Below, in pieces: positions 1 to 32,118 of a DNA stretch of 64,000 nt. How positions within the stretch are numbered: position 1 is the first letter of the stretch; each line of letters begins with the position of its first letter. A program made the position numbers and the translations under genes. This DNA comes from an uncultured Candidatus Saccharibacteria bacterium (lineage in GTDB: Bacteria > Patescibacteriota > Minisyncoccia > Minisyncoccales > UBA5738): contig CAYYEP010000001.1 of the NCBI GenBank assembly GCA_964470995.1, positions 65,813-129,812 of the forward strand. Reading direction: 5' to 3'. The notes under the pieces were generated by a model that was not told the origin of the DNA, made no database searches, and saw only the letters and a program-made list of their open reading frames with translations.

Positions 1-190
1 ATATTATTTGTTTCTTTTTTCCGGGAACAAGGCTTTTATCGCCTTTTTGATCTTTAAGCCAGAAACCGACCAATACTCCGCCATCTGTCTCAATAAAACC
101 AAAGCCTCCGCCGACGTCGAAACTTATTATAGTCCCGCTTTCCTCTTTGACTTCGATACTTTCTTCCGGTTTTTTTTCAGGAACTAGCAT
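1..190 (-). CDS. partial small protein with a GFGFI (cold-shock-domain-like) motif; 3' end lies off the window
   Basis: Not in the ORF track. ATG at 190-188. Minus-strand translation MLVPEKKPEESIEVKEESGTIISFDVGGGFGFIETDGGVLVGFWLKDQKG... stays open to position 1. RBS is weak. Confidence 0.35.
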   Translation of the reverse strand, partial: MLVPEKKPEESIEVKEESGTIISFDVGGGFGFIETDGGVLVGFWLKDQKGDKSLVPGKKKQII

Positions 191-360
191 TCTACCGCGA
201 TAAACACCAGGCCAGTCTAGATATCCCAATTAAATCGCTCTCCTATTATGCACCAATATAATTAAACGGCGGCAAAAGTCAACAAAAGCGCGTACTATTC
301 GTTGGGAAAGGAAAACAATCTATCCTGCCGCGAGTGGCGGGAATTAGCCCGATTAAATGA

Positions 361-416
361 GTTTACCGAGGTCGCACCTCGACAAGTACATCGAGGAGCG
401 ACCTCAAAATACAAAT
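361..416. repeat. extended-hairpin intergenic repeat, copy 1 of 3
   Basis: GTTTACC-GAGGTCGC-A-CCTCGA-loop-TCGAGG-A-GCGACCTC-AAAATACAAAT. Paralogs at 11441-11498 and 32059-32115 have different inner-stem sequences that still pair. Confidence 0.7.
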
Positions 417-508
417 GATTTTCCCCGGAACAGAGTCCCAATGTATTCCGGCGATTGAATAATCAGATAGGTAATTGCAAGGGCGCGTTCCGGAAAAATT
501 GCGAGGTT

Positions 509-1324
509 TTATTGCGCCGCGGCAATAGCGGAATTTTTTTTGACCCGACCGAAAAAAAGATAGCCGGCGGCCAACAGGAAAAGCACAACACAGGCGGTAA
601 CGGCAGTGATCACGTTGGGATAACGGCTGTCGAAACCGGCGGCGGATGCGTGCTTGACCCAGATACCCGAATACGCCCAAACAAAAACAAGGCAATAAGC
701 GATACTCTTTAGCCGCAGAGTTTGCCAGATACCGATTGCCGCACCCGCAAATAAAATTATTACCGTCCAAATATCATCGGCGATGCCAAATCGATCCCAA
801 CCGATGCTTACCAAAAAAACCGTAACATTGGCGATTGAGGCCACTGTTATCCAACCGAAATACACTGAAAACGGCAGGCGCACAAACAATCTTTCCGCGA
901 CCGACAATTCCCGGCCTGCCAGCGCACCGGAAATTTTTGCCAGCCAATAGAGTATGGCCAGGATAAGCAATACCGAAAGCCAAACCAATTTATAATGCCA
1001 GGCAAATACCCAGCAAGCGTTGGCAACCGAAGTAAGAATGAAATATCTTCCGATTTTTGCTAAAATTTCCCGGCGTTCGGGAGTTTTTTCTTTTTGAAAT
1101 ATCCCGGTCTGGTAAATAACGTGTCCCGCCAGCAATAGATAGATCAATCCCCAAATGGAAAAAGCTATCCCCGCGGGCGCGAAAAGATTGGGGTAAGAAT
1201 CCGAAACCTGGCCCGTGGTCAGGTTGTTGATCGGCAGAAGGTTGGCCAGCGCATTTACCAAAACCATGGCAAGATACGTGGCCGCAATCCCGATCTTTAA
1301 AATACGAATTTCGCTTTTTTCCAT
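509..1324 (-). CDS. integral membrane protein, tentatively TspO/MBR-related
   Basis: 271-aa ORF with multiple hydrophobic helices. N-terminal pattern NALANLLPINNLTTGQVSDSYPNLFAPAGIAFSIWGLIYLLL recalls long TspO/MBR-like proteins. Family call is from memory. Confidence 0.6.
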   Translation of the reverse strand: MEKSEIRILKIGIAATYLAMVLVNALANLLPINNLTTGQVSDSYPNLFAPAGIAFSIWGLIYLLLAGHVIYQTGIFQKEKTPERREILAKIGRYFILTSVANACWVFAWHYKLVWLSVLLILAILYWLAKISGALAGRELSVAERLFVRLPFSVYFGWITVASIANVTVFLVSIGWDRFGIADDIWTVIILFAGAAIGIWQTLRLKSIAYCLVFVWAYSGIWVKHASAAGFDSRYPNVITAVTACVVLFLLAAGYLFFGRVKKNSAIAAAQ

Positions 1325-1335
1325 ATTTTTTAAGC

Positions 1336-1839
1336 TTATGCGATTTTGGCAATAATAACCGTATAATTTTTGCCGTATTTTTTAGCGCATTTGGGACAGG
1401 TGGTGTACCACATATACCATTTTTTAATTCCAAAGTTTTTGCCTTTAGCCAACTCTTCAAAATCCTTGCACCATTTGCCGGTGTCCTTAAAATCGCCCTC
1501 GTAAACCTTGCTCAAAAATTTTCCCGATAGCGTAACGTTTTGCGCCCCGGGAATTTCCTTGTCCACGGCCAGATAAAGATCCATATTCCATTTTGACGTG
1601 TGGTCCGACAGACCAAGATAGTCCGGCACATTAGCTTTCGCTGCGGAAACGGCATTCATCAGCTTGGCGACCACCATCCCGAAATTGACCGGCATAAAAA
1701 ACAGAGTAAAAACATTGCCCTTGATGAATCTTTTATTGTCCCATTTTAATATCTTATCGTCCCAAGGCGCGGGATCGAATTTGGGACAGCACTCGATTTT
1801 ATTTTGGGTATCGCCCAAGGATTGGTTTTGGCTATTCAT
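1336..1839 (-). CDS. conserved hypothetical protein with C-terminal CPKC motif
   Basis: 167-aa ORF, CCPKFDPAPWDDK near the N-terminus and TTCPKCAKKYG near the C-terminus. Tight spacing to the downstream gene. Confidence 0.6.
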   Translation of the reverse strand: MNSQNQSLGDTQNKIECCPKFDPAPWDDKILKWDNKRFIKGNVFTLFFMPVNFGMVVAKLMNAVSAAKANVPDYLGLSDHTSKWNMDLYLAVDKEIPGAQNVTLSGKFLSKVYEGDFKDTGKWCKDFEELAKGKNFGIKKWYMWYTTCPKCAKKYGKNYTVIIAKIA

Positions 1840-1860
1840 AGTTTAAATTAGTTAATTATT

Positions 1861-2208
1861 TTAACATTCAACGCACTTGGCTTTTTTGTCAACCAGTTTT
1901 ATCATTTTCCCCAGTTTTGGTTCGTCGATGCTTTTTAAATCCGGAATTTTAATGTGCCTCATGGTTTTGCCGCCTCCTTCCAAAAAATCAATCTCTTTTT
2001 TATCCAAACCGACAATGGAAAAGCCGACGTGCACCCTGCTTTTCATCGCGGCAATATAAAACTTGCCGCCGGAAAAAACGATCACGCCCCAGCCGTATTT
2101 TTCTTCGCAGTTTTTTATGGTTTTAAAAAAAATTTCGCGAACCGCCAAAATGATCTCCTTTTGCGGAGATTTTTGCCTGTCTATTTATTGTTTTACTTTT
2201 TCGTCCAT
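1861..2208 (-). pseudogene. DUF1801/YdhG-like protein interrupted by an in-frame TAA at codon 8
   Basis: ATG at 2208 gives MDEKVKQ-TAA(2187-2185)-IDRQKSPQKEIILAVREIFFKTIKN..., continuous with tracked ORF 1861..2148. The stop sits where family members typically have Tyr (xxYIxxQ). Confidence 0.55.
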
Positions 2209-2227
2209 ATTAAAACTTACCGATTTA

Positions 2228-2614
2228 CTAATTGTTGCCGCATCGCGAACAAACCCCCCTATGGACGCAAACAATTCCGCCGCATTTTTTACATGTCCAT
2301 TTTTCCTTTTCTTTTCTTAAAAACATTCTGATCCCGTTATTTTGTATAAACTCCAAATTATCGATCATGCTCATGCCGTATTTTGTTTTGTATCTTTTGT
2401 CCAGATTTTTTAACCTTTGGCAAGGATATTTTTCGCATTTGGCGGAGCAAAACCGCCATTTATTTTTATTTAAAATGCCGCAATTTTTGATGACGCATTT
2501 TTGGCAAGTTCCTATTGCTTCGCCCCTGCATCCCGGACAATGGTTCTTTTTCCGAAAATACGCCATGCACAAAGCGCAGTTCATTCCGCAAGGAGCGATT
2601 AAAGTTGATTTCAT
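2228..2614 (-). CDS. DUF3795-like cysteine-rich protein
   Basis: 128 aa. CGMNCALC...CPGCRG...CQKCVIKNC pattern typical of DUF3795. Confidence 0.7.
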   Translation of the reverse strand: MKSTLIAPCGMNCALCMAYFRKKNHCPGCRGEAIGTCQKCVIKNCGILNKNKWRFCSAKCEKYPCQRLKNLDKRYKTKYGMSMIDNLEFIQNNGIRMFLRKEKEKWTCKKCGGIVCVHRGVCSRCGNN

Positions 2615-2787
2615 CTATTTTTCTTTATTCAATTTGTTGTATTGGCCTTCGGTAACAAAAATTCGGCGATGATTCGGGTCGGGCAATTTTTTGCTCTAAC
2701 TTTTGCCTTTGGCCATAGTTCCAGCCGATAACTTTTCCAGTTTTAAGATCGATGTCAATGTAAAATCCGGTATTTGAATCAATTTTT

Positions 2788-3018
2788 TTAGCCATTGCGT
2801 TTCTTCTTTAGGCTCTTATAAATAATTGACGCGCCCGCAATAGAAACAACCGCTCCGGCAATTTTCCAAGCCAATGATTTGCCGGCGATCGGCTGGCAAT
2901 TGGCGAAGCATAATATCGGTTTGACATGCACAAGATCGGATCCCTGCAAAAACCACAGCAAGCCGAGAAGCAAAAGGGCGGTTCCAAAAAATACGCCGAT
3001 TACTTTTTTCTTGTTCAT
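2788..3018 (-). CDS. small membrane protein
   Basis: 76-aa ORF with two hydrophobic segments and a basic C-terminus. Confidence 0.5.
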   Translation of the reverse strand: MNKKKVIGVFFGTALLLLGLLWFLQGSDLVHVKPILCFANCQPIAGKSLAWKIAGAVVSIAGASIIYKSLKKKRNG

Positions 3019-3155
3019 TGAATTATTATATATTACTTTTAATTACAAAATCTTTAAATCCAAATGCTGCTGAAGGAGCCTGATCCGGCAACGCCAATAC
3101 TCCACTGGGGATAGTCCCCCGAAATACAAGGCGTTTCGCGATCCAACGAAAGTGA

Positions 3156-3428
3156 TTATTTTTCTTTCCAATGCCACCACTTAAGTTTCTCCGGATTAGG
3201 ATTTGGATTTTCGGCAAAGTAAACTGCGGCGCGTAATACATACAAAAGGCAACGGTCTTGGATTTTGCCCGCAAGGCGGTTGGCGGCGTCATATAATTTT
3301 TCCGGTTCCTTGCCTTTCAAATCCGCCACTGATTTAATGCCGATGTTTTGCAAATCCCGGGCGATGCTTTCCCCCACCCCGGGAATGGTTTGCAAATCAT
3401 CGACGTGTTTTATGCTTTGCGTATTCAT
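3156..3428 (-). CDS. helix-hairpin-helix DNA-binding protein (pathogenicity-locus/Cdd1-like)
   Basis: LQTIPGVGESIARDLQNIGIKSVADL HhH motif. Start moved to the internal ATG (MNTQSIKH) at 3428. Confidence 0.6.
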   Translation of the reverse strand: MNTQSIKHVDDLQTIPGVGESIARDLQNIGIKSVADLKGKEPEKLYDAANRLAGKIQDRCLLYVLRAAVYFAENPNPNPEKLKWWHWKEK

Positions 3429-3556
3429 AAATCTATTTACCCGCCAGAATATCGCGGAGCTTTGCCCCGGGGATGAATAGCGGGTAATCAAACTTTTCCT
3501 ACTGCGGCGCCTTGAACGCGCGGTAGTTTATTGCCTGGCTTAACTTCAAATATTTT

Positions 3557-4212
3557 TTACCAGAGGCCGTAGATCGGCCCCGTAAAATAGAAAATGATAA
3601 TGCCGATAGAATTGTAGAAACCATGGGCAAAGATCGCCGCCCATAAATTGTTATCATATTTTAGCTTAAGCCAGCTGAAAAGCAGCGCGTCACCCGTGGG
3701 GACAACTACACCAATGAGCCCCTGCTCAACGTGCGCAAGGCCGAACAACAAGCTGGAAGCTCCAATTGCCAGCATAGTTCCAAACAGGCTCTTTACCCAT
3801 AAACCGGCAAGCAACTTTTGAATATAGCCGCGATAGGCAATTTCTTCGCCCACGGCCGCCAGCGTCCAGGAAAGCGTCAGAAGCAACACCAATTGCCCCA
3901 AGTTACCATTAAGATCGGCAAAACCGCTGTAATCAATGTTCGTTCCGGTCAAGCGGTTCATGACCGGCAAAACCACGCCAACATCAAACAATTGCAAAAA
4001 AACACGGCGGCAAAGGCAAAGCCGATCATACGGCTCCATGAACGGGGGCGTTTGAATCCCAGCGACCGGATATGGCCGCGCCGGATAAACAGCGAAACAA
4101 TCATCAATCCCAAAATAATCAAAGTGGGCTGGAAAAGATCGAGCAGTATCGCCGCCACAACCGCGCCGATTTCAGCAATGGAAACAATCCTCCATATTAT
4201 TATTTGTTCCAT
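3557..4212 (-). pseudogene. CPBP (CAAX) family intramembrane protease split by a -1 frameshift in an A7 run
   Basis: N-terminal ORF 3958..4212 and C-terminal ORF 3557..4039 (EEIAYRGY, FGLAHVEQG, AHGFYN motifs). Adding one base to the A7 run at 3996-4002 joins ...AAVFFLQLFDVGVV.... Confidence 0.65.
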
Positions 4213-4294
4213 AATCCATTTAACTATCGGAATACACGGGCCCTTAGTCCATTTAAAAGGGTTCGACTCTTTTAAATAGCTTTAAGACGCTTGA

Positions 4295-5320
4295 TTACTT
4301 GAGATATTTCTCCTCGTAATATTGCGGGAGTTGGCATTGCACGAAACTGGCGCAATCGTTGGGCGTTTTAATATCAATGGCGTTGATGCATTTGACCATC
4401 TCCACGGGCCAAGCGGGGCATTCTTCCATACAAGCGTTATAGGCGTCATTTAAATCGGCCGGAGTGGCGTCTTCGGTGAAAGCGGCACAGTCCTTATGCC
4501 TTTGGCAGGCATCGCTGCATTTGTCGGAAACCGGCTTTTTAGCCGGCGCGTCCTCCTGGCACAACGCTTTCAATCGTTGCAAAATATCGATTATTTTTTG
4601 CCCGGCATCTTCCATCTGGAAAATCGGTTCGTTGGGATCGATAATGTCGGCCTCATTGATCTCGGGCAGGGGCGGCACATCCGAAGTAAGCTCGGGAACT
4701 TCGGAGCCCGGCCGGCCGGGATTGATTTCGGGCATTTCGGGAATATAATCCCCGGTCTCGATCGATTCGATATTTATCTCGGGGAGAGGCGGCACATCGG
4801 GGGTTAATTCCGGCACCTGCGAACCGGGCGTTTCTTCGATGATTATCGAATTGGGATCGATTTCGGGGAGGGGCGGCACATCGGGGGTGAGCTCGGGTAC
4901 TTCGGATCCGGGAATTATTTCCACGCTGACATCGGGGAGGGGCGGCACATCGGGAGTTAACTCCGGGACTTGGGAACCCGGGCGGTTCGGATCGTTTTGA
5001 TCGCGTATTTCCGGCTCCACATCCGGCAATTTGGGCACGCTATCCAGCCATTCATTTTTTTTGGCATCCAAATCCGCCAGCTTGTTTTTCAATTCCTCAA
5101 TCTTTTGATTAACATCTTTTTTGTTGCCGCAATCCGCGCCGGCGGCCGTTTCCAGGTTTTTTGCCTCATCCAGCAATTTTTGGTAATCTGCGGCAATGCT
5201 TTGCGGACTGTCCAAAGTATTTTTTTTATTTGAATCAAAAAAATGATCCGCCGCAAAATAACCGCCGATCGCCAAAACCACCGCCGCCGCGCCCATTAAC
5301 ACTTTTTGAATTATGCTCAT
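4295..5320 (-). CDS. secreted or anchored protein with five proline-rich tandem repeats and a Cys-rich C-terminal domain
   Basis: N-terminal TM/signal sequence, coiled-coil-like segment, 5x PGS(Q/E)VPELT(P/S)DVPPLP(D/E)(V/I), then 8 Cys in the last ~90 aa. Confidence 0.75.
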   Translation of the reverse strand: MSIIQKVLMGAAAVVLAIGGYFAADHFFDSNKKNTLDSPQSIAADYQKLLDEAKNLETAAGADCGNKKDVNQKIEELKNKLADLDAKKNEWLDSVPKLPDVEPEIRDQNDPNRPGSQVPELTPDVPPLPDVSVEIIPGSEVPELTPDVPPLPEIDPNSIIIEETPGSQVPELTPDVPPLPEINIESIETGDYIPEMPEINPGRPGSEVPELTSDVPPLPEINEADIIDPNEPIFQMEDAGQKIIDILQRLKALCQEDAPAKKPVSDKCSDACQRHKDCAAFTEDATPADLNDAYNACMEECPAWPVEMVKCINAIDIKTPNDCASFVQCQLPQYYEEKYLK

Positions 5321-5333
5321 ATAATTTTTTTCG

Positions 5334-5561
5334 CTATTTTTGGCAAATTACAATTTTTCGATCTCTTTCAAATCCTTGTCGGGCAAGTAAAGAATCAACA
5401 ATCCCGCGATAATCCCCACCAGCCCGGTCAACAAATGACTGCCGCCAAACAGCCGCACCATATTCCAAATACGCCCCAATTTCCTTTTCAATGTCGCCAT
5501 ACTGCGTATAAAATTCGCCGCTCTTTGCCCTTTTTGCATTTGTCAGATTGCTGTTTGCCAT
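5334..5561 (-). pseudogene. N-terminal stub of an adenine-specific DNA methyltransferase
   Basis: MANSNLTNAKRAKSGEFYTQYGDIEKEI matches the characteristic N-terminus of EcoRI-methylase-like enzymes. The rest of the reading frame is unrelated and short. Confidence 0.45.
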
Positions 5562-5564
5562 ATT

Positions 5565-5726
5565 TTAATTCCGGTAATCCCTTATCAAGAGGCCGCCTTT
5601 GACTCTTTTGACGGTTACTTTTTGTTTCTCGCGCCAGCCGAGATTGCGCACCTCGTCTATCGGCAGTGTCAGGCCGATGCTTCTTTTGCCAACGCGGGTT
5701 AATTTGCGGATTTCTTTGTTTTGCAT
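5565..5726 (-). CDS. AbrB/MazE/SpoVT-type small DNA-binding protein (intact copy of a 3-member family)
   Basis: MQNKEIRKLTRVGKRSIGLTLPIDEVRNLGWREKQKVTVKRVKGGLLIRDYRN. Start at the internal ATG 5726. Degenerate paralogs at 8543-8644 and 9920-10030. Confidence 0.6.
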   Translation of the reverse strand: MQNKEIRKLTRVGKRSIGLTLPIDEVRNLGWREKQKVTVKRVKGGLLIRDYRN

Positions 5727-5731
5727 AATTT

Positions 5732-5766
5732 TGATACTTACCCTGTTACGTAACATGCTACTTACC
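5732..5766. promoter_or_regulatory. operator-like repeats upstream of the AbrB-like gene
   Basis: Two copies of (T/A)TGaTACTTACC-like 12-mers (5732-5743, 5755-5766) flank the palindrome GTTACGTAAC. The same 12-mer is triplicated at 10046-10081. Confidence 0.4.
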
Positions 5767-5804
5767 CCAGTTTTAATCCAAAAGCGTCTATTTGCAAACA
5801 AAAA

Positions 5805-6206
5805 CTATGATACAATCTGGCTGCAATATTTGCAGCGTTTGGCGGCAACCGGAATTTCGCTCAAGCACTCGGGGCATTTTTTAACAGAAGGTTGGGCAAC
5901 TGCATCTTTCTTGGAACGGTTGACCAGCATATTCATCGGCTTGACCACAAAGAAAAATACCGCACCGGCCACCAGAACAAACGAAATGATCGCGTTGATA
6001 AAATGGCCGAACATAAATTTGCTGCCGTTTACCGTGAAAAACAATCCACCAAAATCCGGCACCTTGGCTACCGCCGCGATGAGCGGCGTCAAAAGGTCGG
6101 CGACCAACGCGGTGACCACCGACCCGAAAGCCGCGCCGATCACTACGCCCACGGCCAAATCCACCACGTTCCCCCGCAACAAAAATTGCTTGAAATCGTT
6201 TAACAT
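5805..6206 (-). CDS. mscL: large-conductance mechanosensitive channel MscL with C-terminal zinc-ribbon tail
   Basis: MLNDFKQFLLRGNVVDLAVGVVIGAAFG signature. C-terminus CPECLSEIPVAAKRCKYC. Confidence 0.9.
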   Translation of the reverse strand: MLNDFKQFLLRGNVVDLAVGVVIGAAFGSVVTALVADLLTPLIAAVAKVPDFGGLFFTVNGSKFMFGHFINAIISFVLVAGAVFFFVVKPMNMLVNRSKKDAVAQPSVKKCPECLSEIPVAAKRCKYCSQIVS

Positions 6207-6256
6207 ATTTTTTATTATTTTAATTTCCGATACGGTAATTTAAAAACCGAATCTCA

Positions 6257-7159
6257 CTAAAATAAGTTAGTCGGCGGCTCTTTCAGATAAGCCTCTATAT
6301 TATCAATCATCATATCATTGGCAATCCGGGCGGTAACATCGGTGTTAAACGCAATATGCGGCGTCGCCAATATTCTACCGCTTGTTAAAAGTTTCTGATA
6401 AAAATCATCACTCGCATCACCAACCCGGGCATCGCCCGCATCAATGGCCGCACCTGAAATATTTTTCCCCAAGCAAAATAATAATGCATCAATATCGTAT
6501 ATTTTCGAACTCGTGACTGAAATAAAATAGGTTCCGGTATTGAGCGATGCAAAAAATTTCTCATTAAGCATCCCAACCGTTGTCGGGTTTTGACTTAGGC
6601 AGTTAATCACGATATCCGCACCCTTGGCGCTTTCCATAATATTATCGCCCTGCCTGAAAAAAATAACATCCATGCCGAATACGTCACAAATTTTTCCAAC
6701 CTTGGATCCGATATTACCTACCCCCAATATGCAAACCTTTTTTCCAGCCAATCCAAGAGTACGTCTCGGCAAATTGTATTTCGCTTGCTTCACCGAATTT
6801 ATTTGCTTTGGCAAATCTCGCAGCAGATTTATCATCATGCCGATTATCCATTCCGATACCGCATCTTTATTGCAGCCCGGTGAATTCGCGACCTTGATAT
6901 TTTTGGCTCTCAATTTCTCCGCGTCCATCCAACCGATGCCAACGAGCGGCAATGAAATAAAAACATTTTCCAACTCATAAATTTTTTGCCGCAGGCCAAA
7001 GCTGCCCGTGCAAATAATATCAAAACCCCGGCATCTATCAAGCCAACCCTCAGGCGATTCCGCCGCATCATTATAAATCTTCACTTCACCCAAATTATTT
7101 AACCGTTCAATTTGGTCCGGTAACAAATCCAATCCTTGCGCAATCACAATTCTATTCAT
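6257..7159 (-). CDS. D-isomer-specific 2-hydroxyacid dehydrogenase family protein
   Basis: NAD-binding GLAGKKVCILGVGNIGSKVG and a C-terminal catalytic-domain pattern (ATPHIAF). Confidence 0.75.
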   Translation of the reverse strand: MNRIVIAQGLDLLPDQIERLNNLGEVKIYNDAAESPEGWLDRCRGFDIICTGSFGLRQKIYELENVFISLPLVGIGWMDAEKLRAKNIKVANSPGCNKDAVSEWIIGMMINLLRDLPKQINSVKQAKYNLPRRTLGLAGKKVCILGVGNIGSKVGKICDVFGMDVIFFRQGDNIMESAKGADIVINCLSQNPTTVGMLNEKFFASLNTGTYFISVTSSKIYDIDALLFCLGKNISGAAIDAGDARVGDASDDFYQKLLTSGRILATPHIAFNTDVTARIANDMMIDNIEAYLKEPPTNLF

Positions 7160-7196
7160 AGAATTTATTTAAATACTTGCAACAATAACTTTTTTA

Positions 7197-7760
7197 TTAA
7201 TAATACTTCTCAATCCCTCCAAAACCAAATTGCTTGTTTTGTCCGGACTTTTTTATGAGATTGGCAAGGCGTTTCTCAAATTCCGCAGGGTGGGATCGCG
7301 CGCTCTCAACATAGCCAACGCGGATTCTTTGGTAGGCTGGAGAAAATTTGCGGAAATTGTCCCAAGCAATTTTGTTGGCTTTAATCTTGGCCATAATGTC
7401 CGGCGGAAACACAAACTTTTTCGCCAACACCGCCTCAACCTCTTTTCGCACCGCCGGAATCACCCTTCCTTCCGCCGCCAGCCGCCGCAACCGCTCAATA
7501 TTCGCCTGCGAATATCCGCTCTTGGGATTGCGCGGCGTAAATCTCTGCGCCAAGGAAAATTCATCAATCTTCTTCACAGTACTATCGATCCACCCAAAAC
7601 AAAGCGCGACCTCGACCGCATCATTGTAAGCTATGCGCGTTTTCCCGGATTTTTTATTGTAATACACTAACCATATCTCCCTTTCAATATCGCGATTCTT
7701 CTTCAGCCAATCATGCCATTTATCCCTTCCGGTAACATATAATTTTTTTCCTATTTCCAT
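7197..7760 (-). CDS. YdeI/OmpD-associated family protein
   Basis: GWIDSTVKKIDEFSLAQRFTPRNPKSGYSQANIERL pattern typical of the YdeI family. Confidence 0.7.
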   Translation of the reverse strand: MEIGKKLYVTGRDKWHDWLKKNRDIEREIWLVYYNKKSGKTRIAYNDAVEVALCFGWIDSTVKKIDEFSLAQRFTPRNPKSGYSQANIERLRRLAAEGRVIPAVRKEVEAVLAKKFVFPPDIMAKIKANKIAWDNFRKFSPAYQRIRVGYVESARSHPAEFEKRLANLIKKSGQNKQFGFGGIEKYY

Positions 7761-7903
7761 TGAACAAATAATTATTTATTATTCGTTTTTATAGCTTCTT
7801 TACTAAATCTATGAATTTTAACAATGATTTTTCATGCGTTCTTTGTAAAACTTAATGGAATTCATGTGGTCAAAGGCGATTTCGCTTTCCGGGGGCAGCG
7901 CCG

Positions 7904-8506
7904 CTAATGGAAACCATTGTTGTTGGTCGCTCTCATCGTCGGCCGCGCCAATCTTTTCCCGCGCGGTGCAAAAAGCCCGGAAGCTTCTTTTTTATCTTGC
8001 AGGCTCCGCCTCAAATCAGCGATCGCTTCCTTTAATTCCGTGGCGGTTACTGCCGCCTGTTTTTTTGTCGCCCCCGACGTTGGCAACGATGATTTGTCGT
8101 AAAATTCGTCGTAATCCTTGGCAATCCGTTTGCGATCAATAGTGTAGCCTTTCAATATGTGCTGGCGAAGCGTTTTTGTCGCCCACTGGCGGAAGGCAGT
8201 GGCGGTTTTGGAATTCACGCGATAACCACCGATATAATCATATCCAGATTGTAATGTTTGATATCGCGCACAACCTCCCTACCCCCTTCCTTTTGAACTA
8301 TCCGGAAATTCCGGATAGTTGTCTTTTCATTTAATTCCCCGACTTTATAGATATTTTTGATATGTTCATTGATAGTCCTCAAATCAACCCCAAAAGCCGC
8401 CGCAATCTGCGCTTGCGTCGCCCAAATCGTTTCCTTTTTAAAACCGCCATTGAATTCAAGCGCGCCGTTTTTGCCTGATAGATGATAATTTCTTTTTTTG
8501 CGGCCA
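7904..8506 (-). pseudogene. RhuM-family (virulence-associated) gene with at least two -1 frameshifts
   Basis: ATG at 8506 gives MAAKKEIIIYQAK. A shifted frame gives NGALEFNGGFKKETIWATQAQIAAAFGVDLRTINEHIKNIYKVGELNEKTTIRNFRIVQKEGGREVVRDIKHYNLDMIISV. Then ORF 7904..8218 begins VNSKTATAFRQWATKTLRQHILKGY. The shifts map to a T5 run (8467-8471) and a CC/GG run (8226-8227). Confidence 0.6.
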
Positions 8507-8542
8507 TCTTTTTTTTCAAATTTTTTTAAGCCCCAATCATAG

Positions 8543-8693
8543 CTAGCTTTTTTCTTTCAATTTTAAATTTCTTACCTCCTCTATCGGCAGGGCCGGGAAG
8601 AAAGGACGTTTACCGATGCGGGTTAGTTTGCGAATTGTTTTATTTCACAACAGAATACCTACTTTTTGCGTTAACAAAATTGCTGTTTGCCAT
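8543..8693 (-). pseudogene. AbrB-like remnant (copy 2) preceded by a 17-codon methyltransferase N-terminal stub
   Basis: Stub MANSNFVNAKSRYSVVK* (8693-8640). AbrB remnant NKTIRKLTRIGKRPFFPALPIEEVRNLKLKEKS* has no start codon, and TGA sits where codon 2 is expected. Confidence 0.5.
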
Positions 8694-8727
8694 AATTTTA
8701 CCCCACTTAACCATCGCGCAAAATTGA

Positions 8728-9867
8728 TTATTTGTTTAAAATTTTTTTATACAGGCCAATCGTTTTTTCGATCATTATATCCGACCTGAATTGTTTTGCC
8801 GTTTCTTTTGCGGCCAACGACATGCGATGGCGCAAAGCGGTGTCGCGCAATAAAATTCTGATTTTCTCCTCGGCCTCTTCCACATTACCCACGATAAAAC
8901 CGTTTTCCCCATCACGAATAATTTCCGGGGCCACGCCGACAGAAAAACTGACCGGGACTAAACCTTGCGACATTGCCTCAATTAAACTTAGCGAAAATCC
9001 TTCATAACGCGAAGTTAAAACCGCAATACACCCGGCGTATTTTGCGAGTAAAGCCGGAATGCTGTCTTTTACGGCATTCGCAATTATGGAATGATTTACA
9101 ATATTGTCTTTCATCCATTTAACCAGCTTTTTGTTTCTCGACATTGTCACGGAAAATTTTTCGACCTCCGGAAACCGCTGGAAAAGCCAGATGAGCCGAT
9201 CAACTCCCTTTAACTTCAGCGTAAACGGGTCTTCACCGATTCTGCCCAAAAAAATAAGGGCGGGTTCATTTCTCAAGCTCGCATTCGGCGATTCAAACCA
9301 ATAATCCTCAATCGCGTTATAAATCACTTTGATTTTATCGGCCGAAATCCCGACACTTATCAAATCATTTTTTACTATTTCGGATGTGGCAATAATATAA
9401 TCGGCGCGCTCCGCCGCGTATTGCTCGATGGAGGCAATGTCATTAAGCGGGCGGCGGCTTTTTATGTTAAGTTCGCGGAGTACGCCAGCTCGCCTAAAAC
9501 GCAGGAAAATTTCACTGCATCCGTTTTCCAAATTGCTTGTTTTTGGAACGGCTCGCAAAAAACCGATAGTAGTTGAGCCGAAATGCGACACCACCGGCTT
9601 GGAAAAACGAAGAAATGCGAGCGGAGTGTAGGTTGTTCCCTGAATAATATCATGGCGCAGTATGTCTTCGCGCTTTTCCAGCAATGAATAAAAAAAGAGA
9701 ATATTATTGATGCCCTTAAAATTGACCGGCGTATCTTTCAGTAAAAAACGCGGATAAAAATTATTTACCTTGGCGCCCTTCTCTCGCAGCTTACAGGCAA
9801 TAAGATCATTGATAAAATGCGCGCCGGTGCCTTCTTTTTTGTCGCTATGGATAAAAGCTACTTTCAT
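8728..9867 (-). CDS. glycosyltransferase family 4 (GT-B, GT1/GT4-like)
   Basis: C-terminal EGFSLSLIEAMSQGLVPVS...ENGFIV motif. Confidence 0.8.
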   Translation of the reverse strand: MKVAFIHSDKKEGTGAHFINDLIACKLREKGAKVNNFYPRFLLKDTPVNFKGINNILFFYSLLEKREDILRHDIIQGTTYTPLAFLRFSKPVVSHFGSTTIGFLRAVPKTSNLENGCSEIFLRFRRAGVLRELNIKSRRPLNDIASIEQYAAERADYIIATSEIVKNDLISVGISADKIKVIYNAIEDYWFESPNASLRNEPALIFLGRIGEDPFTLKLKGVDRLIWLFQRFPEVEKFSVTMSRNKKLVKWMKDNIVNHSIIANAVKDSIPALLAKYAGCIAVLTSRYEGFSLSLIEAMSQGLVPVSFSVGVAPEIIRDGENGFIVGNVEEAEEKIRILLRDTALRHRMSLAAKETAKQFRSDIMIEKTIGLYKKILNK

Positions 9868-9919
9868 TTTTTTATTTCATTAGATCATCAAGCAAAACTC
9901 GGCGGCGATTAACAACCTT

Positions 9920-10030
9920 TTATACGGAAGACCAAAGATAGCTTCGGGCGGACAGGGTCTCTATCGGGAGGGTCGGGCCGAGAAGGCGTTTGCCGACGCG
10001 GGTCAGTTTTTTAATTTATTTATTTTCCAT
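9920..10030 (-). pseudogene. AbrB-like remnant (copy 3) with an in-frame TAA at codon 5
   Basis: MENK-TAA(10018-10016)-IKKLTRVGKRLLGPTLPIETLSARS.... The intact paralog has Glu (GAA) at this position. Confidence 0.5.
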
Positions 10031-10045
10031 AATGATTTTTTTGTT

Positions 10046-10081
10046 TTGCCACTTACCTTGCTACTTACATTGCTACTTACA
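10046..10081. repeat. 3 x 12-nt tandem repeat (TTGC[C/T]ACTTAC[C/A]), operator-like
   Basis: ttgccacttacc ttgctacttaca ttgctacttaca lies directly upstream (minus sense) of AbrB-like copy 3. It is related to the motif at 5732-5766. Confidence 0.7.
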
Positions 10082-10134
10082 TATAATCTTACGATAAAAC
10101 CGCGACCCAGCAAAATACACAGGACAAAAAATAA

Positions 10135-10731
10135 TCATACTTTGGCCGCGGAAAACAAGACTTTAACCAGCCTTTTGCGCGCGACCGCGTAGAGTAGAAT
10201 TGAGCCCATAATAACGCAATATAACGGGAAAGCGTATTCCGAGGGGGCCCAATTTTTCATGGCAAAAAAAGGCGTTGCCAGATTAACCAAACCGGTGATA
10301 TAAGGAGTGATGTTTTCGGTTTCGGGATAGCGCCACGCCTTGGCCAGCGTCGGAATGGTGGAGAAAAAGTCACTGATGATTGCCAAAAATATCGCCACCA
10401 GCGGATCTTTAGTGAGATACCAGAAGAACAAAGCCAAAATGGAAGACGCGCCGCAAAGATAATCGAAATTATTCAACCGCCAGCCGGTTTTTTTATTGGC
10501 AAACGAAGCGGCAAAAACGATAAGCGAACCAACGCCGGAGGCGAAAGCCGGCAAAGCCGGCCAGCGCGCCCCGTCGGTAAACGCCGCGGCCGCCGCGATT
10601 AGAGGCACTATCCCCCATAACAACCAGGTTACCCGGTTGGGTTTTGCCTCCCCTTTTAGCGTCGCTTTGGCGTAAACGAGATTACCCCAGAATTGCAAAA
10701 TTACTCCGAAGATAACCAAATATTCAAGCAT
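10135..10731 (-). CDS. integral membrane protein, unknown function
   Basis: 198 aa with about 6 hydrophobic helices. Confidence 0.65.
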   Translation of the reverse strand: MLEYLVIFGVILQFWGNLVYAKATLKGEAKPNRVTWLLWGIVPLIAAAAAFTDGARWPALPAFASGVGSLIVFAASFANKKTGWRLNNFDYLCGASSILALFFWYLTKDPLVAIFLAIISDFFSTIPTLAKAWRYPETENITPYITGLVNLATPFFAMKNWAPSEYAFPLYCVIMGSILLYAVARKRLVKVLFSAAKV

Positions 10732-10836
10732 AATTTAGTACAAAAGATTTACCTCGTCCGATTTTCATTCCGCTTTTTTAAACGGCACACACCGATTTTT
10801 TTTATAGCCCTGATCGCTTGGCGGCGGGGCAGCTTA

Positions 10837-11232
10837 TTACTCATAATTGCCGTGTGATTCGGGTTGGTGCAAGATTTTTTCCACTTTCAGTTTTTTTTCG
10901 CCCTTTGGGGTATTAACGGAGATCGTATCGCCGATCTTATAGCCCAGCAAGGCGCAACCGATCGGAGAAAGCACAGATATCTTCCGTTGGCTAATATCCG
11001 CGGCCTCGGGAAAAACAAGCCAGTATTCAAGCTCGTCCTTGGATTCAATATCGCAAAAAACCACCAGCGAATTCATAGTTATCACATCGCCGGGAATATC
11101 CCGCGGCTCGACGATCGTTGCCCGATTCAATTCGGCGAGCAGAGCTTCGTCATGATTGTCGTGGCGCTGTTTTTTGTTTATTATCTCGACCAATTTTTTA
11201 TAGTCGTTTTTGGTTATGTATATTGGATTCAT
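10837..11232 (-). CDS. GreA/GreB-family protein (Rnk-like regulator of nucleoside diphosphate kinase)
   Basis: 131 aa. The C-terminal VSVLSPIGCALLGYKIGDTISVNTPKGEKKLKVEKI matches the GreA/B C-terminal domain. Confidence 0.75.
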   Translation of the reverse strand: MNPIYITKNDYKKLVEIINKKQRHDNHDEALLAELNRATIVEPRDIPGDVITMNSLVVFCDIESKDELEYWLVFPEAADISQRKISVLSPIGCALLGYKIGDTISVNTPKGEKKLKVEKILHQPESHGNYE

Positions 11233-11262
11233 ATCAATAATTAAAAACCGGCCTTTTAATTG

Positions 11263-11301
11263 CCGGTTGTTTGCTGCGCGTTCGCGCTGACAAACAACCG
11301 G
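11263..11301. other. long GC-rich hairpin between the rnk-like gene and the tRNA locus
   Basis: CCGGTTGTTTG...GCGCG-TT-CGCGC...CAAACAACCGG. The 11-bp outer stem is perfect. Function unknown (processing site or terminator?). Confidence 0.5.
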
Positions 11302-11440
11302 TCAGGAACCGGTTTTAAGAGAGACCTTTTGGTTGGAGTTAATCATCCGCATAAGCTTAGCTATGGTATAGCAAGAAAGAAAAAAACAAGCAAACAAATT
11401 TTTTATCGAGCCTACGAAATTGAGCGAGCTTAAAATATAA

Positions 11441-11498
11441 GCTGGCCAAGGTCGCACCTTGGCATGCTCGCCGAGGAACGACCTTAAAAAACAAATAC
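11441..11498. repeat. extended-hairpin intergenic repeat, copy 2 of 3
   Basis: AAGGTCGC-A-CCTTGGC-loop-GCCGAGG-A-ACGACCTT-AAAAAACAAATAC. Confidence 0.65.
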
Positions 11499-11518
11499 TA
11501 AACGTTCGGTTACCGTTG

Positions 11519-11583
11519 CGGAGGGTGGAGGATGCTTCAAGCTTGCTTTTCGCAAGTTCAAACCTCCGAGGGGCTGTCCCCAA
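11519..11583 (-). pseudogene. orphan 3' fragment of tRNA-Ser (variable arm to discriminator) with an insertion in the T-loop
   Basis: TTGGGGACAGCCCCTC-GGAGG-TTTGAA[CTTGCGAAAAGCAAG]CTTGAAGCAT-CCTCC-ACCCTCC-G. There is no 5' half. Confidence 0.6.
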
Positions 11584-11587
11584 CCTA

Positions 11588-11848
11588 TTTAATTCGTGAA
11601 AAAGCGGAGGGGGCGAGATTCAAACTCGCGGTGGCTTTTGGCCACAACGGTTTTCTTCGCTTTGCTGCGGCGTCAATTTCATTGCGGAGGGTGGAGGATT
11701 CGAACCTCCGAGGAGTTTCCCCCAACTGGTTTTCAAGACCAGCGCTATAGGCCACTCAGCCAACCCTCCGCAATGAAATTGACCAAGACCATCTCCTTTC
11801 CTACTGGTCACAACGCTCAGACACCCCTCCGCTTTTTCACGAATTAAA
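11588..11848 (-). other. outer tRNA-Ser-like unit interrupted by a 129-nt insert that carries the functional tRNA; flanked by an 18-nt perfect inverted repeat
   Basis: 5' part GGAGGGGTG...ATGGTCTTG and 3' part AAAACCGT...GCGAGTTTGAATCTCGC-CCCCTCC-G. Flanks TTTAATTCGTGAAAAAGC (11848-11831) and GCTTTTTCACGAATTAAA (11605-11588). Confidence 0.55.
11685..11769 (-). tRNA. tRNA-Ser (anticodon UGA), no encoded CCA
   Basis: Manual cloverleaf: GGAGGGT/ACCCTCC acceptor, D-loop GAGTGGCCTAT, anticodon arm CTGGT-CTTGAAA-ACCAG, long variable arm, GGAGG-TTCGAAT-CCTCC, G73. Confidence 0.85.
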
Positions 11849-12005
11849 GTTTTCCCCGCCTACGCGGGACTTCCTGCTGGTCGCAAACCAGCGCCATGAC
11901 TCCCTCGATTACGCGGGAACCATCAAAAAAGCACTCAACCAACCATCCCTACTCCATACCGGTTTTACCGGCATGGATACAATTAATCACGCAATACGGT
12001 AAAAA

Positions 12006-14564
12006 TCAAGCTTGTTTTTTCCCGAATAGCAGCCATTTGAACGGTTCAAACCACAGGGCGCCCAGCACGCCTAAGGCCGCGGCCCGGGCAAGATCGGCGG
12101 GCATTACCGGATCAAAATGGAATACCTGGCGCAAGGGCGGGTATAGCAACACCGCAACCAACATCATCAGGGCGGCGGCAAAGACCCAAAGAAATGCTCT
12201 ATTGCCGTTAATAAATACCTTGAACGGATTACCCCAGCTTAAATTGGCGACGATCAAAAACAGGTTGGCAACCAATATCGCAACAAACGACAGGGCGCGG
12301 ATCTGGCCTTCGCTTTGGCCGGAATGGAGAGCGGCCATATAAACAATAAATACCGCCACGAGCACCCCCAATCCCTGCAATAAGCTGGTCCAGAAGGCGC
12401 GGCGGCCAAAAAGAGACCGGCTTAAACGGCGCGGCGGCCGGTTCATAATATTTTTTTCGGCGGGCTCATTTTCGAAAACTACCGAACAAGCCGGGTCGAT
12501 AACCAATTCAAGAAACGCGATATGCGCCGGGAAAAATACTACGGGCAGATTCAACGCTACGGGTAAAAACGACATCCCCGCGATCGGAATATGCACCGCA
12601 AAAATATAGGCGATAGCCTTTTTAATGTTATCGAAGACCGTTCGGCCCATACGAATGGCGCGGACGATCGAAGTGAAATCATCGTTAAGCAGGACAAGGT
12701 CGGCGGTTTCGCGAGCAACATCGGTGCCGCGCTCCCCCATGGCAATACCGATATGGGCGGCTTTGAGCGCCGGGGCGTCATTAACACCATCTCCGGTCAT
12801 GGCAATGGTCATACCCTTATCCTTGAGCGCGTTGATAAGCAACATTTTTTGTTCGGGAACTACACGCGCAAAAACGTTCACGGTGTCCAATTTTTTAACA
12901 AGGTCGGCGCGGGCCATAGACTGGAGTTCCATGCCAGTTAGACATTCGTCCGGATTCTTAAGGCCGATCTGGCGCGCGATCTGGCGCGCGGTGGCGGGAT
13001 AATCGCCGGTGATCATACAAACCCGGACTCCGGCCGTATAACACTCTTTAACGGCCGCCGGAACCGACGGCCGTACCGGATCTTCAAAACCAAGCAGACC
13101 CACGAATTCAAAATCAAAATCATGCTGGCCGCTGGCATTAAGCTTATCTTTGGCAACCCCGGCAACCGCCACCCCCAAAAGCCGCAAGCCATCGGAAAGC
13201 AGCGGTTCCATGCGTTGCATAAGTTTTGTTTTTTCGGGTTCGCCAAGGTGGCATAGTTCGGCGATCGATTCGGGGGCGCCCTTGGCAGCAACCACATAAC
13301 GCCCGCCGTCGCCCGTTTCCCAAACGTGCGAAAGCGCTAAAAGGTTGCCCGAAAAAGGATATTCTTTTATTAATCTCCAATTTGAATGCAAATGGCTGGT
13401 TGATTTGAGGAGAAATTCGCCGGTTTTTTTAATTTCTTTTTCCAGCGGGTCGAACGGGTCGGTTTGGCTGGCAAGAATACCGTATTCAAGCAGTTCTTCG
13501 TATTGTTCGGGAATGATATTGCCGCCGGCGCCATAATCATCGACATTTAACGAACCCTCCATTACGGCCAGTTTTTTCAAGCGCATCTGATTAAAAGTGA
13601 TCGTACCGGTTTTGTCGGAACAAAGGATATCGGCGGCGCCCAGCATTTCAATGGCGGCGGTGTTGCGCGTCAAAACTTTTCTTTTTGATATGCGCCAGGC
13701 ACCAATGGTCATAAACAGCAACATTACCACCGGGAATTCTTCGGGCAACATAGACATACTGATCGTCAAACCGTAAAGAACCCCCTGCAACAGATTGCCG
13801 TTGGCCGCAACATAGATCGCGACAGTTGCAATACAAAGACCCAAGCCGATGATGCCGAAAAATTTTGTAAGCCGGGCGGTCTCGGATTTTAAATGAGTCC
13901 CTTCATCGGCAACCGCCTGCAGAGACTTTCCGATCTTGCCCATTTCGGTATTGATACCAGTGGCAACCACTTTGGCAAAGCCGTGTCCCCGGTTTATGAG
14001 CGTCCCGGAATAAATAAACTGCAGATTATCCCCTCCGGGATGATCGCCGGCGATAAGCCGTTTTCCGTCCCAAACCGATTTTGAAACGGCGACCGACTCA
14101 CCGGTAAGTAAAGATTCATCAACCGATAAATTAACCGACTCTAAAACCGCGGCGTCGGCGGCAACGCGGTCGCCTTCGCGCAGGATCATAATATCCCCCG
14201 CCACCACTTCCCGGCCAGCAACGCGTTTTTGCGCGCCGTCGCGGATTACTAACGCCCGGGGACTGGATAAATCGCGCAAAGCTTCAAGGGCGCGTTCGGT
14301 CTTGCGCTGCTGGTAAAAAGTGATGCCCACAATAAAAAAAATGAAAGTGGAAAGTATCAAGGAATCGCTCAATTCTCCCAAGTAAAAATAGATCATCCCG
14401 GCGACAACAAGCAATAAAAGCATAGGCTCTTTAACCACTTCGATCATAATTAAAAAAAGGCCGCGTTTTTTTTGCGACGGCAATTCGTTATAGCCGTCTT
14501 TTACCAGCCGCTCCCGGGCTTGTTTGGAGGTAAGCCCTTCAATCATTTTGGGATCGTTAAACAT
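12006..14564 (-). CDS. cation-transporting P-type ATPase (P2-type, Ca2+/Mg2+-like)
   Basis: 852 aa with DKTGTITFN phosphorylation site, TGESVAV, MITGDYPATA and TGDGVNDAPALK. Confidence 0.9.
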   Translation of the reverse strand: MFNDPKMIEGLTSKQARERLVKDGYNELPSQKKRGLFLIMIEVVKEPMLLLLVVAGMIYFYLGELSDSLILSTFIFFIVGITFYQQRKTERALEALRDLSSPRALVIRDGAQKRVAGREVVAGDIMILREGDRVAADAAVLESVNLSVDESLLTGESVAVSKSVWDGKRLIAGDHPGGDNLQFIYSGTLINRGHGFAKVVATGINTEMGKIGKSLQAVADEGTHLKSETARLTKFFGIIGLGLCIATVAIYVAANGNLLQGVLYGLTISMSMLPEEFPVVMLLFMTIGAWRISKRKVLTRNTAAIEMLGAADILCSDKTGTITFNQMRLKKLAVMEGSLNVDDYGAGGNIIPEQYEELLEYGILASQTDPFDPLEKEIKKTGEFLLKSTSHLHSNWRLIKEYPFSGNLLALSHVWETGDGGRYVVAAKGAPESIAELCHLGEPEKTKLMQRMEPLLSDGLRLLGVAVAGVAKDKLNASGQHDFDFEFVGLLGFEDPVRPSVPAAVKECYTAGVRVCMITGDYPATARQIARQIGLKNPDECLTGMELQSMARADLVKKLDTVNVFARVVPEQKMLLINALKDKGMTIAMTGDGVNDAPALKAAHIGIAMGERGTDVARETADLVLLNDDFTSIVRAIRMGRTVFDNIKKAIAYIFAVHIPIAGMSFLPVALNLPVVFFPAHIAFLELVIDPACSVVFENEPAEKNIMNRPPRRLSRSLFGRRAFWTSLLQGLGVLVAVFIVYMAALHSGQSEGQIRALSFVAILVANLFLIVANLSWGNPFKVFINGNRAFLWVFAAALMMLVAVLLYPPLRQVFHFDPVMPADLARAAALGVLGALWFEPFKWLLFGKKQA

Positions 14565-14783
14565 TTTTTATTTATATATCTTTTTGGCTTCCGCTTTGGC
14601 GAGCATAGCAACATTGCCCGCGCGCCGATTAGGAATTACGAGCGCAAAACCGGAAATTAAAAAAGGGTTCAATCCGATTGTTTAAACATTAGGTATTATT
14701 ATATCCGATTCTTCCACTTCTTAAAACTAATCCTCTATAATATAATGAATTAATATCTTAATTTTAAACAATTAAAAATAATT

Positions 14784-16700: not shown

Positions 16701-16745
16701 TCTGCATAGCCTCCATCCGGGGCTTCCCGGATGTATCAAAAAAAC

Positions 16746-16770
16746 AAAAATTCCCTTACAGGAATTTTTT
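16746..16770 (+). terminator. rho-independent terminator after the vWA gene
   Basis: AAAAATTCC-cttaca-GGAATTTTTT. Confidence 0.7.
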
Positions 16771-16801
16771 GTTTAGATGCAATAATTAGAGCGACAAAAT
16801 G

Positions 16802-16980
16802 AATCTCCCCGGGGACAAACGCGACGGGATCTAGGTTGAACCGCCTTCCGCTTTGTTCCAGGCGTCCCCCGCATACTGCGAGGGAAAATTTTCATCCCCC
16901 CCGCTTCCTCCCGATTACGGGAGGCGCCCCGCCGCAGTCGCGGCGGAAAACGCGCGGGGTATTAAGATTTGTTCAATAAA
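16802..16980. repeat. GC-rich multi-hairpin intergenic repeat, copy A (full length, ~179 nt)
   Basis: Near-identical to 34532-34705; the last 83 nt are identical. Contains hairpins CCTCCCG-ATTA-CGGGAGG and CCGCCGC-AGTC-GCGGCGG enclosed by CCCCGC/GCGGGG. Confidence 0.8.
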
Positions 16981-17034
16981 TAAAATTAAAGAGGTTGAAG
17001 CATTATATCCCGAAGGATTGCCCAACCTCTAAAT

Positions 17035-17250
17035 TTAAAATGGCCACCATTTTCTTTTTGGTTTTGCGGGCGGAAAAGTTTCAAGAGCGGCTTGTCTGCT
17101 TCTCCCGCAACCACCGCAATAATTCTTATAGCCATACATCTCCTGCCCGCACCAATTGCACAGCGGCACAGGGATGGATTCTACTCCGCAACTGGGGCAA
17201 AACCCAGCGCTAGTAGGGTTTCCACATTTCGGGCACATTTTTCCACGCAT
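17035..17250 (-). CDS. double zinc-ribbon small protein
   Basis: CPKCGN...CPSCG...CNWCG...CGGCG. Confidence 0.6.
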   Translation of the reverse strand: MRGKMCPKCGNPTSAGFCPSCGVESIPVPLCNWCGQEMYGYKNYCGGCGRSRQAALETFPPAKPKRKWWPF

Positions 17251-17635: not shown

Positions 17636-17664
17636 GAATTGAAAACACCGTTTGACACGGTGTT
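17636..17664 (-). terminator. putative native terminator of tRNA-Ser(GCU), now separated from it by the integrated element
   Basis: Minus sense AACACCG-TGTCAAA-CGGTGTTTTC immediately follows the attL core. Confidence 0.5.
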
Positions 17665-17672
17665 CAGCGAAA

Positions 17673-17856: not shown

Positions 17857-17864
17857 TTTAATTT

Positions 17865-19730: not shown

Positions 19731-19745
19731 AATTTTATTTTACGA

Positions 19746-32115: not shown

Positions 32116-32118
32116 CCA

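Follow-up and report, generated by a model that had tools for sequence, protein, structure and literature searches.

The window analyzed here, the whole stretch of 64,000 nucleotides, carries three copies of a short hairpin at plus-strand positions 361 to 416 (copy 1), 11441 to 11498 (copy 2), and 32059 to 32115 (copy 3), as an initial sequence-only reading had reported, and none elsewhere. The copies lie 11 and 21 kb apart, and all three are extragenic. Their neighbors, each on the minus strand, are ordinary genes with no relation among them: a TspO-like membrane protein and a cold-shock-like gene for copy 1, tRNA-Ser(tga) and a GreA-like gene for copy 2, and an AI-2E transporter and an RsmI-like methylase for copy 3. 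Copy 1 is found 104 nt past the stop of the ORF at 509 to 1324 and upstream of a sigma-70-like match at 282 to 255. This match, TTGACT-16-TATATT, falls between copy 1 and the cold-shock-like ORF (1 to 215, minus strand, containing GTIISFDVGGGFGFIETDGG), which runs past the left end of the window. Copy 2 is located downstream of tRNA-Ser(tga) and of degenerate tRNA-Ser pieces, starting approximately 16 to 20 nt past one of these, a 3' fragment, and 216 nt separate its core from the greA-like start farther downstream. For copy 3, the distance between its end and the AI-2E transporter stop codon (32119 to 32121) is 3 nt. The proposal that the minus strand is the relevant one, with the copies downstream of minus-strand genes, is supported.

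The three copies have in common the core AGGTCGC-R-CCT-N14-AGG-A-R-CGACCT, at 369 to 404, 11449 to 11484, and 32067 to 32102, within minus-strand hairpin cores at 368 to 405, 11448 to 11485, and 32066 to 32103, respectively. In copy 1, an outer stem of 8 bp, closed by G368-C405, is topped by a 1x1 mismatch (A/A on the plus strand, U:U on the minus) and then by an inner stem of 6 to 8 bp. On the folding minus strand, its 3' flank (351 to 367), CGGTAAACTCATTTAAT, has diverged from the family consensus YGNCAAACTTGYATTTT, and its 5' flank (406 to 417), CATTTGTATTTT, fits the family consensus ATTTGTATTTT. Copy 2, which with both flanks spans 11431 to 11498 on the minus strand, has the family-typical U.G wobble (C:A on the plus strand) at the inner end of its outer stem. 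The sequence-only reading had correctly described the outer stem, (G/A)AGGTCGC / GCGACCT(C/T), and the opposed bases, A/A in two copies and G/A in copy 3. Its GTTTACC flank is present in copies 1 and 3 only, copy 2 having GCTGGCC, and the inner stems do pair as claimed, albeit imperfectly, with a T.G wobble in copy 2 and a T:C mismatch in copy 3. The window copies are somewhat degenerate members of their family.

The spaced pattern AGGTCGC-N18-34-GCGACCT has 2 matches in the window and 0 in 100 shuffles, and the remaining copy, which carries the C:A variant, escapes it. A covariance model built from the three copies recovers 3 matches in the 64 kb with E of ~1e-18, the next best match having E = 0.1. 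On the minus strand, no U-tract adjoins the stem in any of the three copies, as first observed, the tails being CGGUAAACUCAU, GGCCAGCUUAUAUUUU, and CGGUAAACUAGA; in copy 2, UUAUAUUUU begins 8 nt past the stem. The window hairpins are therefore not intrinsic terminators. A terminator scan of 1 to 20000, which spans copies 1 and 2, listed neither, and a column profile of the 3' flank showed no conserved -10-like hexamer at a suitable distance.

Other repeats were observed in the window. The tRNA-Ser(tga) gene (11684 to 11769, minus strand) is set within nested perfect inverted repeats (11516 to 11848). A 21-nt inverted repeat (11672 to 11692 and 11763 to 11783) lengthens its acceptor stem by 14 bp, a 25-nt inverted repeat lies around it (11588 to 11612 and 11824 to 11848), and degenerate tRNA-Ser pieces surround it at 11516 to 11533, 11557 to 11584, 11604 to 11625, and 11816 to 11832; one tRNA-Ser 3' fragment has an insertion in the T-loop. 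Locus L005 has a comparable tRNA-like 3' fragment behind its orthologous tRNA (approximately 1860 to 1888). An imperfect 36-nt inverted repeat at 48736 to 48817, 78% complementary and with arms GATTTATGAATCGCAATTTAAGG..., ends approximately 10 nt before the tmRNA gene (48827 to 49192). A related palindrome, GATTTATGGATCGCGAATCGCGAT, is located at 31963 to 32002, just upstream of the rsmI-like start, and is conserved in loci L115 and L116.

Pairing and strand specificity of the hairpin

Each window copy has a two-tier fold, with z scores of -5.2 to -8.7 on the plus strand and -3.6 to -7.8 on the minus strand, and stem-loops of -24 to -29 kcal/mol. The window-type element is a hairpin of approximately 38 nt, comprising an 8-bp outer stem, a conserved 1x1 mismatch, a variable inner stem of 6 to 8 bp, and a 4-nt loop, set between two short flanks that each carry TTGYATTTT on the folding strand. 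When 45 window-type copies are aligned, 10 of the 16 stem pairs have changes on both sides. None of 500 shuffles reaches the observed covariation values, and slid registers give 27 to 47% pairing. The pairing-preserving substitutions first noticed in three copies are thus real and strong over these related copies. Some copies recovered by a model search of the collected loci share these flanks and the 1x1 mismatch, yet their outer stems are wholly different (AGGTGAA/TTCACCT and GGGTCTA/TAGACCC), indicating that it is the hairpin, not its sequence, that is kept. Across the family, the inner segment ranges from 8 to 24 nt. The selection on structure proposed earlier does not imply a function in host RNA, as copies occur in both orientations and in frame in essential genes, their neighbors are unrelated, and copy 3 is absent in a relative.

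The hairpin is specific to one strand. Pairing in the 45 window-type copies amounts to 98.5% on the reverse strand, which corresponds to the minus strand of the window, versus 90.4% on the plus strand, and U.G wobbles occur on the reverse strand at two positions, in 38 of 45 and 21 of 45 copies. Accordingly, the C:A pair in copy 2 that had been taken as a mismatch is present on the plus strand but is no defect, being the family consensus and a U.G wobble on the folding strand. The conserved A/A of the plus strand likewise reads as a U:U (or T:T) mismatch there. The reverse strand is the more stable in 110 of 119 copies drawn from all subfamilies, a bias that is partly due to the search pattern but is also seen in the inner stems alone. 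The window copies fold on the minus strand, the same one that carries the genes.

The arms of the stem, AGGTCGCACCT, AGGTGAAACCT, and GGGGTCTAACCCC, are internal dyads of the form AGGT-NNN-ACCT, and perfect-palindrome versions of the element are found at L043 (923 to 1001), L036 (2491 to 2562), and L114. Subfamilies other than the window type often have GCTTCGC in the variable tip, or GCGAAGC on the folding strand (L025, 3971 to 4011; L064, 4692 to 4732; L101, 4556 to 4596). The DNA heptamer d(GCGAAGC) forms an unusually stable mini-hairpin, and this tip could hint at a single-stranded DNA form.

Distribution of the family among Patescibacteria

What had been read as a three-copy motif is instead part of a large family dispersed across Patescibacteria. 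An exact-pattern scan of one genome per species (AGGTCGCRCCT-N8-24-AGGARCGACCT) returned at least 112 loci, versus ~5 expected by chance, by our own estimate for uniform composition (596 Gb x 2 strands x 17 spacings / 4^21). Approximately nine-tenths of the listed loci are labeled as Patescibacteria (CPR) metagenome-assembled genomes (MAGs), and the labels among the matches listed include Saccharibacteria, Paceibacteria/Parcubacteria, Microgenomates, and Lloyd-, Vogel-, Nomura-, and Beckwithbacteria; these labels are taken as given, and the few proteobacterial or other-phylum loci may be mis-binned or chance matches. Several MAGs have 6 to 15 listed loci each, up to about 15. Because the exact pattern was derived from the window, the core and the A:A mismatch are constant in the sample by design, and copies that diverge or form perfect palindromes are underrepresented; divergent copies were added by the model search of the loci. 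Whole-family counts refer to the 119 copies in the collected loci, so that the family has at least 119 members, with up to 5 per 8 kb.

Closest to the window among the matches listed are two Saccharibacteria MAGs, and the ATPase/tRNA-Ser region is syntenic with L005 and L041. Subfamilies can be told apart by their flanks. The window type is bordered by AAAATRCAAGTTTGNCR and, at its opposite end, by YAAAATRCAAAT; the Paceibacteria type is enclosed in an additional covarying helix around TCCTCA...TTTCCC; and there are further a Lloydbacteria type and a type with long perfect hairpins. The core measures 30 to 46 nt across the family, or ~65 nt with flanks. The flank motif AAATRCAAAT by itself is not enriched in the window (30 matches versus 33 expected) and is thus no general signal of intergenic DNA there. 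Additional repeats accompany the family in places. At L096 (1009 to 1104), 2.5 copies of a 38-nt unit from the element's 3' arm and loop form a tandem array (TTGCCGATTACGGCAAGGAACGACCTTGCCATGGTTGT), and a similar partial arm re-duplication is seen inside an ORF at L071 (2087 to 2180). A second, unrelated perfect-palindrome family, GTTGAAGTCAAAC...GTTTGACTTCAAC, is found in the same Saccharibacteria MAGs (L034, 2395 to 2470; L004, 7706 to 7786; L096, approximately 1118 to 1190), with no clear copy in the window.

Searches for a known identity returned nothing relevant. Rfam 15 at the gathering threshold, applied to the window and 15 loci, reported only tmRNA and tRNAs, and at E <= 10 the element gave only chance miRNA/sRNA matches far below threshold. 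No match to the element was found in viral contigs, plasmids, or phages. A full-text search of the literature turned up no dispersed hairpin family described in CPR/Patescibacteria, and the family thus appears undescribed.

Position relative to genes and turnover

For window-type intergenic copies, we scored an adjoining stop as that of a long ORF ending within about 0 to 60 nt, the ORF calls in the loci being crude and mechanical. Nineteen copies have such a stop on the folding strand only and 5 on the other strand only (two-sided binomial P of ~0.007, our own calculation), with 10 having one on both strands and 25 on neither. In L043, five consecutive intergenic regions contain one copy each, 0 to 16 nt past a stop and 50 to 200 nt before the next start. 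Orientation in the whole family is not significantly biased, either to the coding strand (68:51) or to the G-rich strand (67:52). As GC skew and coding strand are confounded in the 8-kb loci (64+48 concordant, 7 discordant), skew does not separate an RNA origin from a replication-strand origin. Clustering of 202 flanking ORFs revealed no recurrent family, which excludes a gene-specific cis-regulator, such as a riboswitch or leader, as well as a linked transposase.

About one-sixth of the family copies (~20 of 119) lie in frame inside long ORFs, with no stops and in all six frames. In LeuRS, which hosts a copy twice at one site, the element is an 18-amino-acid insertion relative to the Thermus thermophilus enzyme (PDB 1h3n). 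Other in-frame hosts are AddA/UvrD-nuclease, UvrA, Tgt, HsdM, MnmA, and ArgRS, and a PanE-like reductase hosts a window-type copy together with its flank.

Comparison of close relatives shows that copies come and go. The synteny of M16 peptidase, AI-2E transporter, RsmI, and MetRS is kept in L115, L116, and L117. The intergenic region that holds copy 3 measures 159 nt in the window versus 51 nt in L115 and 65 nt in L116, whose AI-2E transporter proteins are 94% and 85% identical, respectively, to that of the window. Alignment assigns the difference to a single hairpin-bearing block present only in the window, of 99 nt relative to L115 (approximately; 32018 to 32116, minus strand) and of 87 nt relative to L116 (32032 to 32118). 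The empty site of L115 reads TGA-TGAGTG-TTTGTATTT..., so that the family-flanking TTTGTATTT motif was already there. TGGG(G)TATT at both window junctions of the block is a possible repeat, with ambiguous boundaries. No clean target-site duplication was found. The TTGYATTTT motifs on the two sides differ within a copy, and a duplication by way of these flanking repeats is not supported.

Two further cases point the same way. Between the ATPase stop and tRNA-Ser, a copy is present in L005 but not in the window; downstream of tRNA-Ser the situation is the opposite, with copy 2 in the window and none in L005. In L113 and L114, panE-like genes with ~92% identity carry different inserts at one site. 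The insert of one gene is a perfect 19-bp palindrome, AAGGTTTCACCTTGC-AAGCTT-GCAAGGTGAAACCTT; that of the other consists of a window-type flank and a AAGGTCGC...CGACCTT hairpin, behind which the 3' arm of the former palindrome persists, a net gain of 45 nt that stays in frame. More distant panE-like homologues have no insert at that site. Taken together, these comparisons indicate a rapid turnover of the elements, which can take each other's place at hot spots.

The panE-like genes differ in other segments as well. A further 96-nt in-frame insertion in L113 (737 to 833; EESPSRELPPSLKLRTAETADRRSPSREATADRS) is absent from the L114 gene and has no significant hairpin (z = -0.95), and in other homologues two more sites are occupied by short inserts (AATAQGSGEPT and GSPSRKTTADQ). 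For copy 1, no empty site was found among database homologues of its TspO-like neighbor, since that neighbor is on record only from the same strain (L118 and L119), the next homologue being 69% identical and in other synteny. Contigs L118 and L119 are identical to the window over 180 to 520, including copy 1, and come from unrelated runs (SRR20705930 and SRR8925740), implying that the same strain is present in several public data sets.

Affinities and interpretation of the repeat family

Small palindromic repeats dispersed through genomes are a well-known kind of element, with REP, RPE, ERIC, Correia, and SPRITE sequences as examples (PMC10969869). The Patescibacteria hairpin resembles REP/REPIN elements in being an imperfect palindrome of ~35 to 40 nt with a conserved internal mismatch, in having many dispersed copies, mostly in 3' intergenic positions, with covarying stems and one relevant strand, and in forming inverted doublets (e.g., L086, 459 to 510 and 528 to 608). 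Unlike those elements, it has no GT[AG]G tetranucleotide at its foot; GTAG/GGAG is not conserved in the alignments, where the foot reads R-AGGTCG on either strand. A sizeable share of its copies is also intragenic and in frame. RAYT genes are typically flanked by REPs, but no RAYT (Y1 HUH transposase) gene was seen in the loci scanned. With IS200 and IS608 TnpA as tblastn queries, ~0.9 Mb of loci and the window gave no hit below E = 0.7, which is a weak test. REP or MITE families are normally species-specific, whereas the exact core of this family is common to deep CPR lineages.

Rickettsia palindromic elements (RPEs), reviewed in PMC10969869, are likewise palindromic repeats of a reduced-genome, host-dependent bacterium that occur in noncoding DNA as well as in frame in unrelated housekeeping genes, where they are presumably translated. 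RPEs are, however, ~100 to 150 bp long, code for a peptide that is conserved, and occur in Rickettsia only, in contrast to the CPR element of 30 to 65 nt in six frames; no sequence resemblance was noticed. SPRITE in Streptococcus pneumoniae, inverted DUS pairs in Neisseria, and intrinsic terminators share with it a stable GC-rich stem-loop just after genes, on the sense strand, in genome-wide repeats, but the CPR element has no adjoining U-tract, occurs inside ORFs and antisense, and has no single-arm copies. A dependence on a one-strand hairpin, as in the subterminal hairpins of IS200/IS605 or in integron attC sites, would apply here too, with structure and mismatches kept as the sequence varies. 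Unlike these, the CPR copies are isolated, not paired ends or cassette arrays, and have no linked transposase or integrase gene and no attC R/L boxes. Compared with a MITE, the hairpin itself is the inverted repeat.

We conclude that the three window hairpins are likely copies of a dispersed, nonautonomous, REP/RPE-like palindromic repeat family of Patescibacteria. The family behaves like REPs or RPEs in that its copies are gained and lost among close relatives and land both intergenically, preferring positions just behind stops, and in frame. A REP-like element is the best fit among the roles first suggested, the others being an RNase III or processing site and an mRNA 3' stabilizer. In the mechanism we propose, a trans-acting enzyme or process would recognize the strand-specific hairpin, as single-stranded DNA or RNA, and propagate it; such recognition would keep the stems paired and the mismatch conserved as the stem sequence drifts. 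In 3' UTRs, the setting of all three window copies, the transcript would end in or traverse a stable stem-loop, which probably hinders 3' exonucleases or serves as a pause site, an effect as an RNase III substrate being plausible. We regard any such RNA effect, which the data do not call for, as a side effect or co-opted use and not as the reason for the family, since intragenic, antisense, and dispensable copies argue against a primary role. Two points speak against a selfish repeat. The core common to deep CPR lineages could reflect a conserved host factor instead, and the bias of the folding strand to gene 3' ends also fits a selected RNA function.

That latter reading, in which the hairpin is a dedicated 3'-end element of host RNA (a U-tract-independent terminator, a 3'-exonuclease barrier, or an RNase III or processing site) spread by host need, seems to us unlikely. 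It would account for the setting of all three window copies, each of which lies on the gene strand in an intergenic region between two genes of the same direction, past the stop of the upstream one, for the 19-to-5 preference of window-type copies for stops on the folding strand, and for the unbroken L043 series of copies close behind stops. The G.U wobbles at fixed positions look RNA-like, and the stems are stable. Yet across the family, the folding strand is the local coding strand in only 68 copies versus 51, and termination or cleavage would be harmful within the essential genes that house one-sixth of the copies in either orientation. The stem also lacks an adjoining U-tract, relatives with a closely similar flanking protein dispense with copy 3, and the window has 3 copies for roughly 60 genes. 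A site in double-stranded DNA, with paired inverted half-sites for a dimeric nucleoid protein, gyrase, or recombinase as for REP/BIME, predicts conserved sequence and is very improbable, given that both stems covary, that the inner segment varies threefold in length, and that the strand-specific asymmetry of G.T versus C.A is not sensed by duplex DNA. Moreover, no single unpaired 11-mer occurs in the window. The internal dyads of the arms, the perfect-palindrome versions, and the direct repeats of TTGYATTTT in the flanks would suit such a site.

Hardly credible at all is that the hairpin belongs to a known structured or array element, i.e., an attC site, a CRISPR or TIGR repeat, a riboswitch or leader, an uptake-sequence pair, or a known IS/MITE end. 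The likeness is superficial and consists of the 36-nt core, the kept structure with a variable interior, as in attC, and the occurrence of TIGR arrays in parasitic bacteria (PMC12045711). TIGR units are tandem, with an edge repeat, a 9-nt spacer, a loop repeat, and another 9-nt spacer, carry box C/D motifs, and adjoin a tas gene, the 9-nt spacers being unpaired (PMC12045711); the copies described here are dispersed singles and fully paired. RYYYAAC/GTTRRRY boxes are absent from the alignments, and there is no cassette spacing. DNA uptake sequences were dismissed on the absence of lone 11-mers from the window, and a known IS/MITE terminus, which the sequence-only reading had considered fatal to its proposal, was set aside. 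The unrelated neighboring genes, the Rfam results at both thresholds, and the lack of matches in viral contigs, plasmids, and phages argue against this group as a whole.

Returning to the dispersed repeat family, a bolder version may be put forward tentatively, though we consider it doubtful. It holds that these are superphylum-wide mobile hairpins of 30 to 65 nt, propagated one-strand-specifically by an HUH-type single-stranded DNA enzyme or by an RNA route that recognizes AGGT-NNN-ACCT arms with a fixed mismatch. Such hairpins would repeatedly invade essential CPR genes in frame, swap at hot spots, explain part of the short lineage-specific insertions in CPR proteins, and supply intergenic stem-loops at 3' ends.

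For the window itself, the message is modest: the hairpins are repeat copies, not regulators of the neighboring genes. The genomes of CPR/Patescibacteria are tiny and streamlined and are considered poor in repeats. Should the family prove as widespread as the scan suggests, it would be a source of annotation errors, giving rise to spurious ORFs, genes that appear split, and protein insertions that lack an explanation, and a marker for strain-level dynamics. It would also stand beside Rickettsia as a second clear case in which palindromic DNA has settled in frame in the essential genes of a host-dependent bacterium, and may offer a handle on a single-strand-specific mobilizing enzyme or on RNA-end machinery in organisms that are hard to culture.
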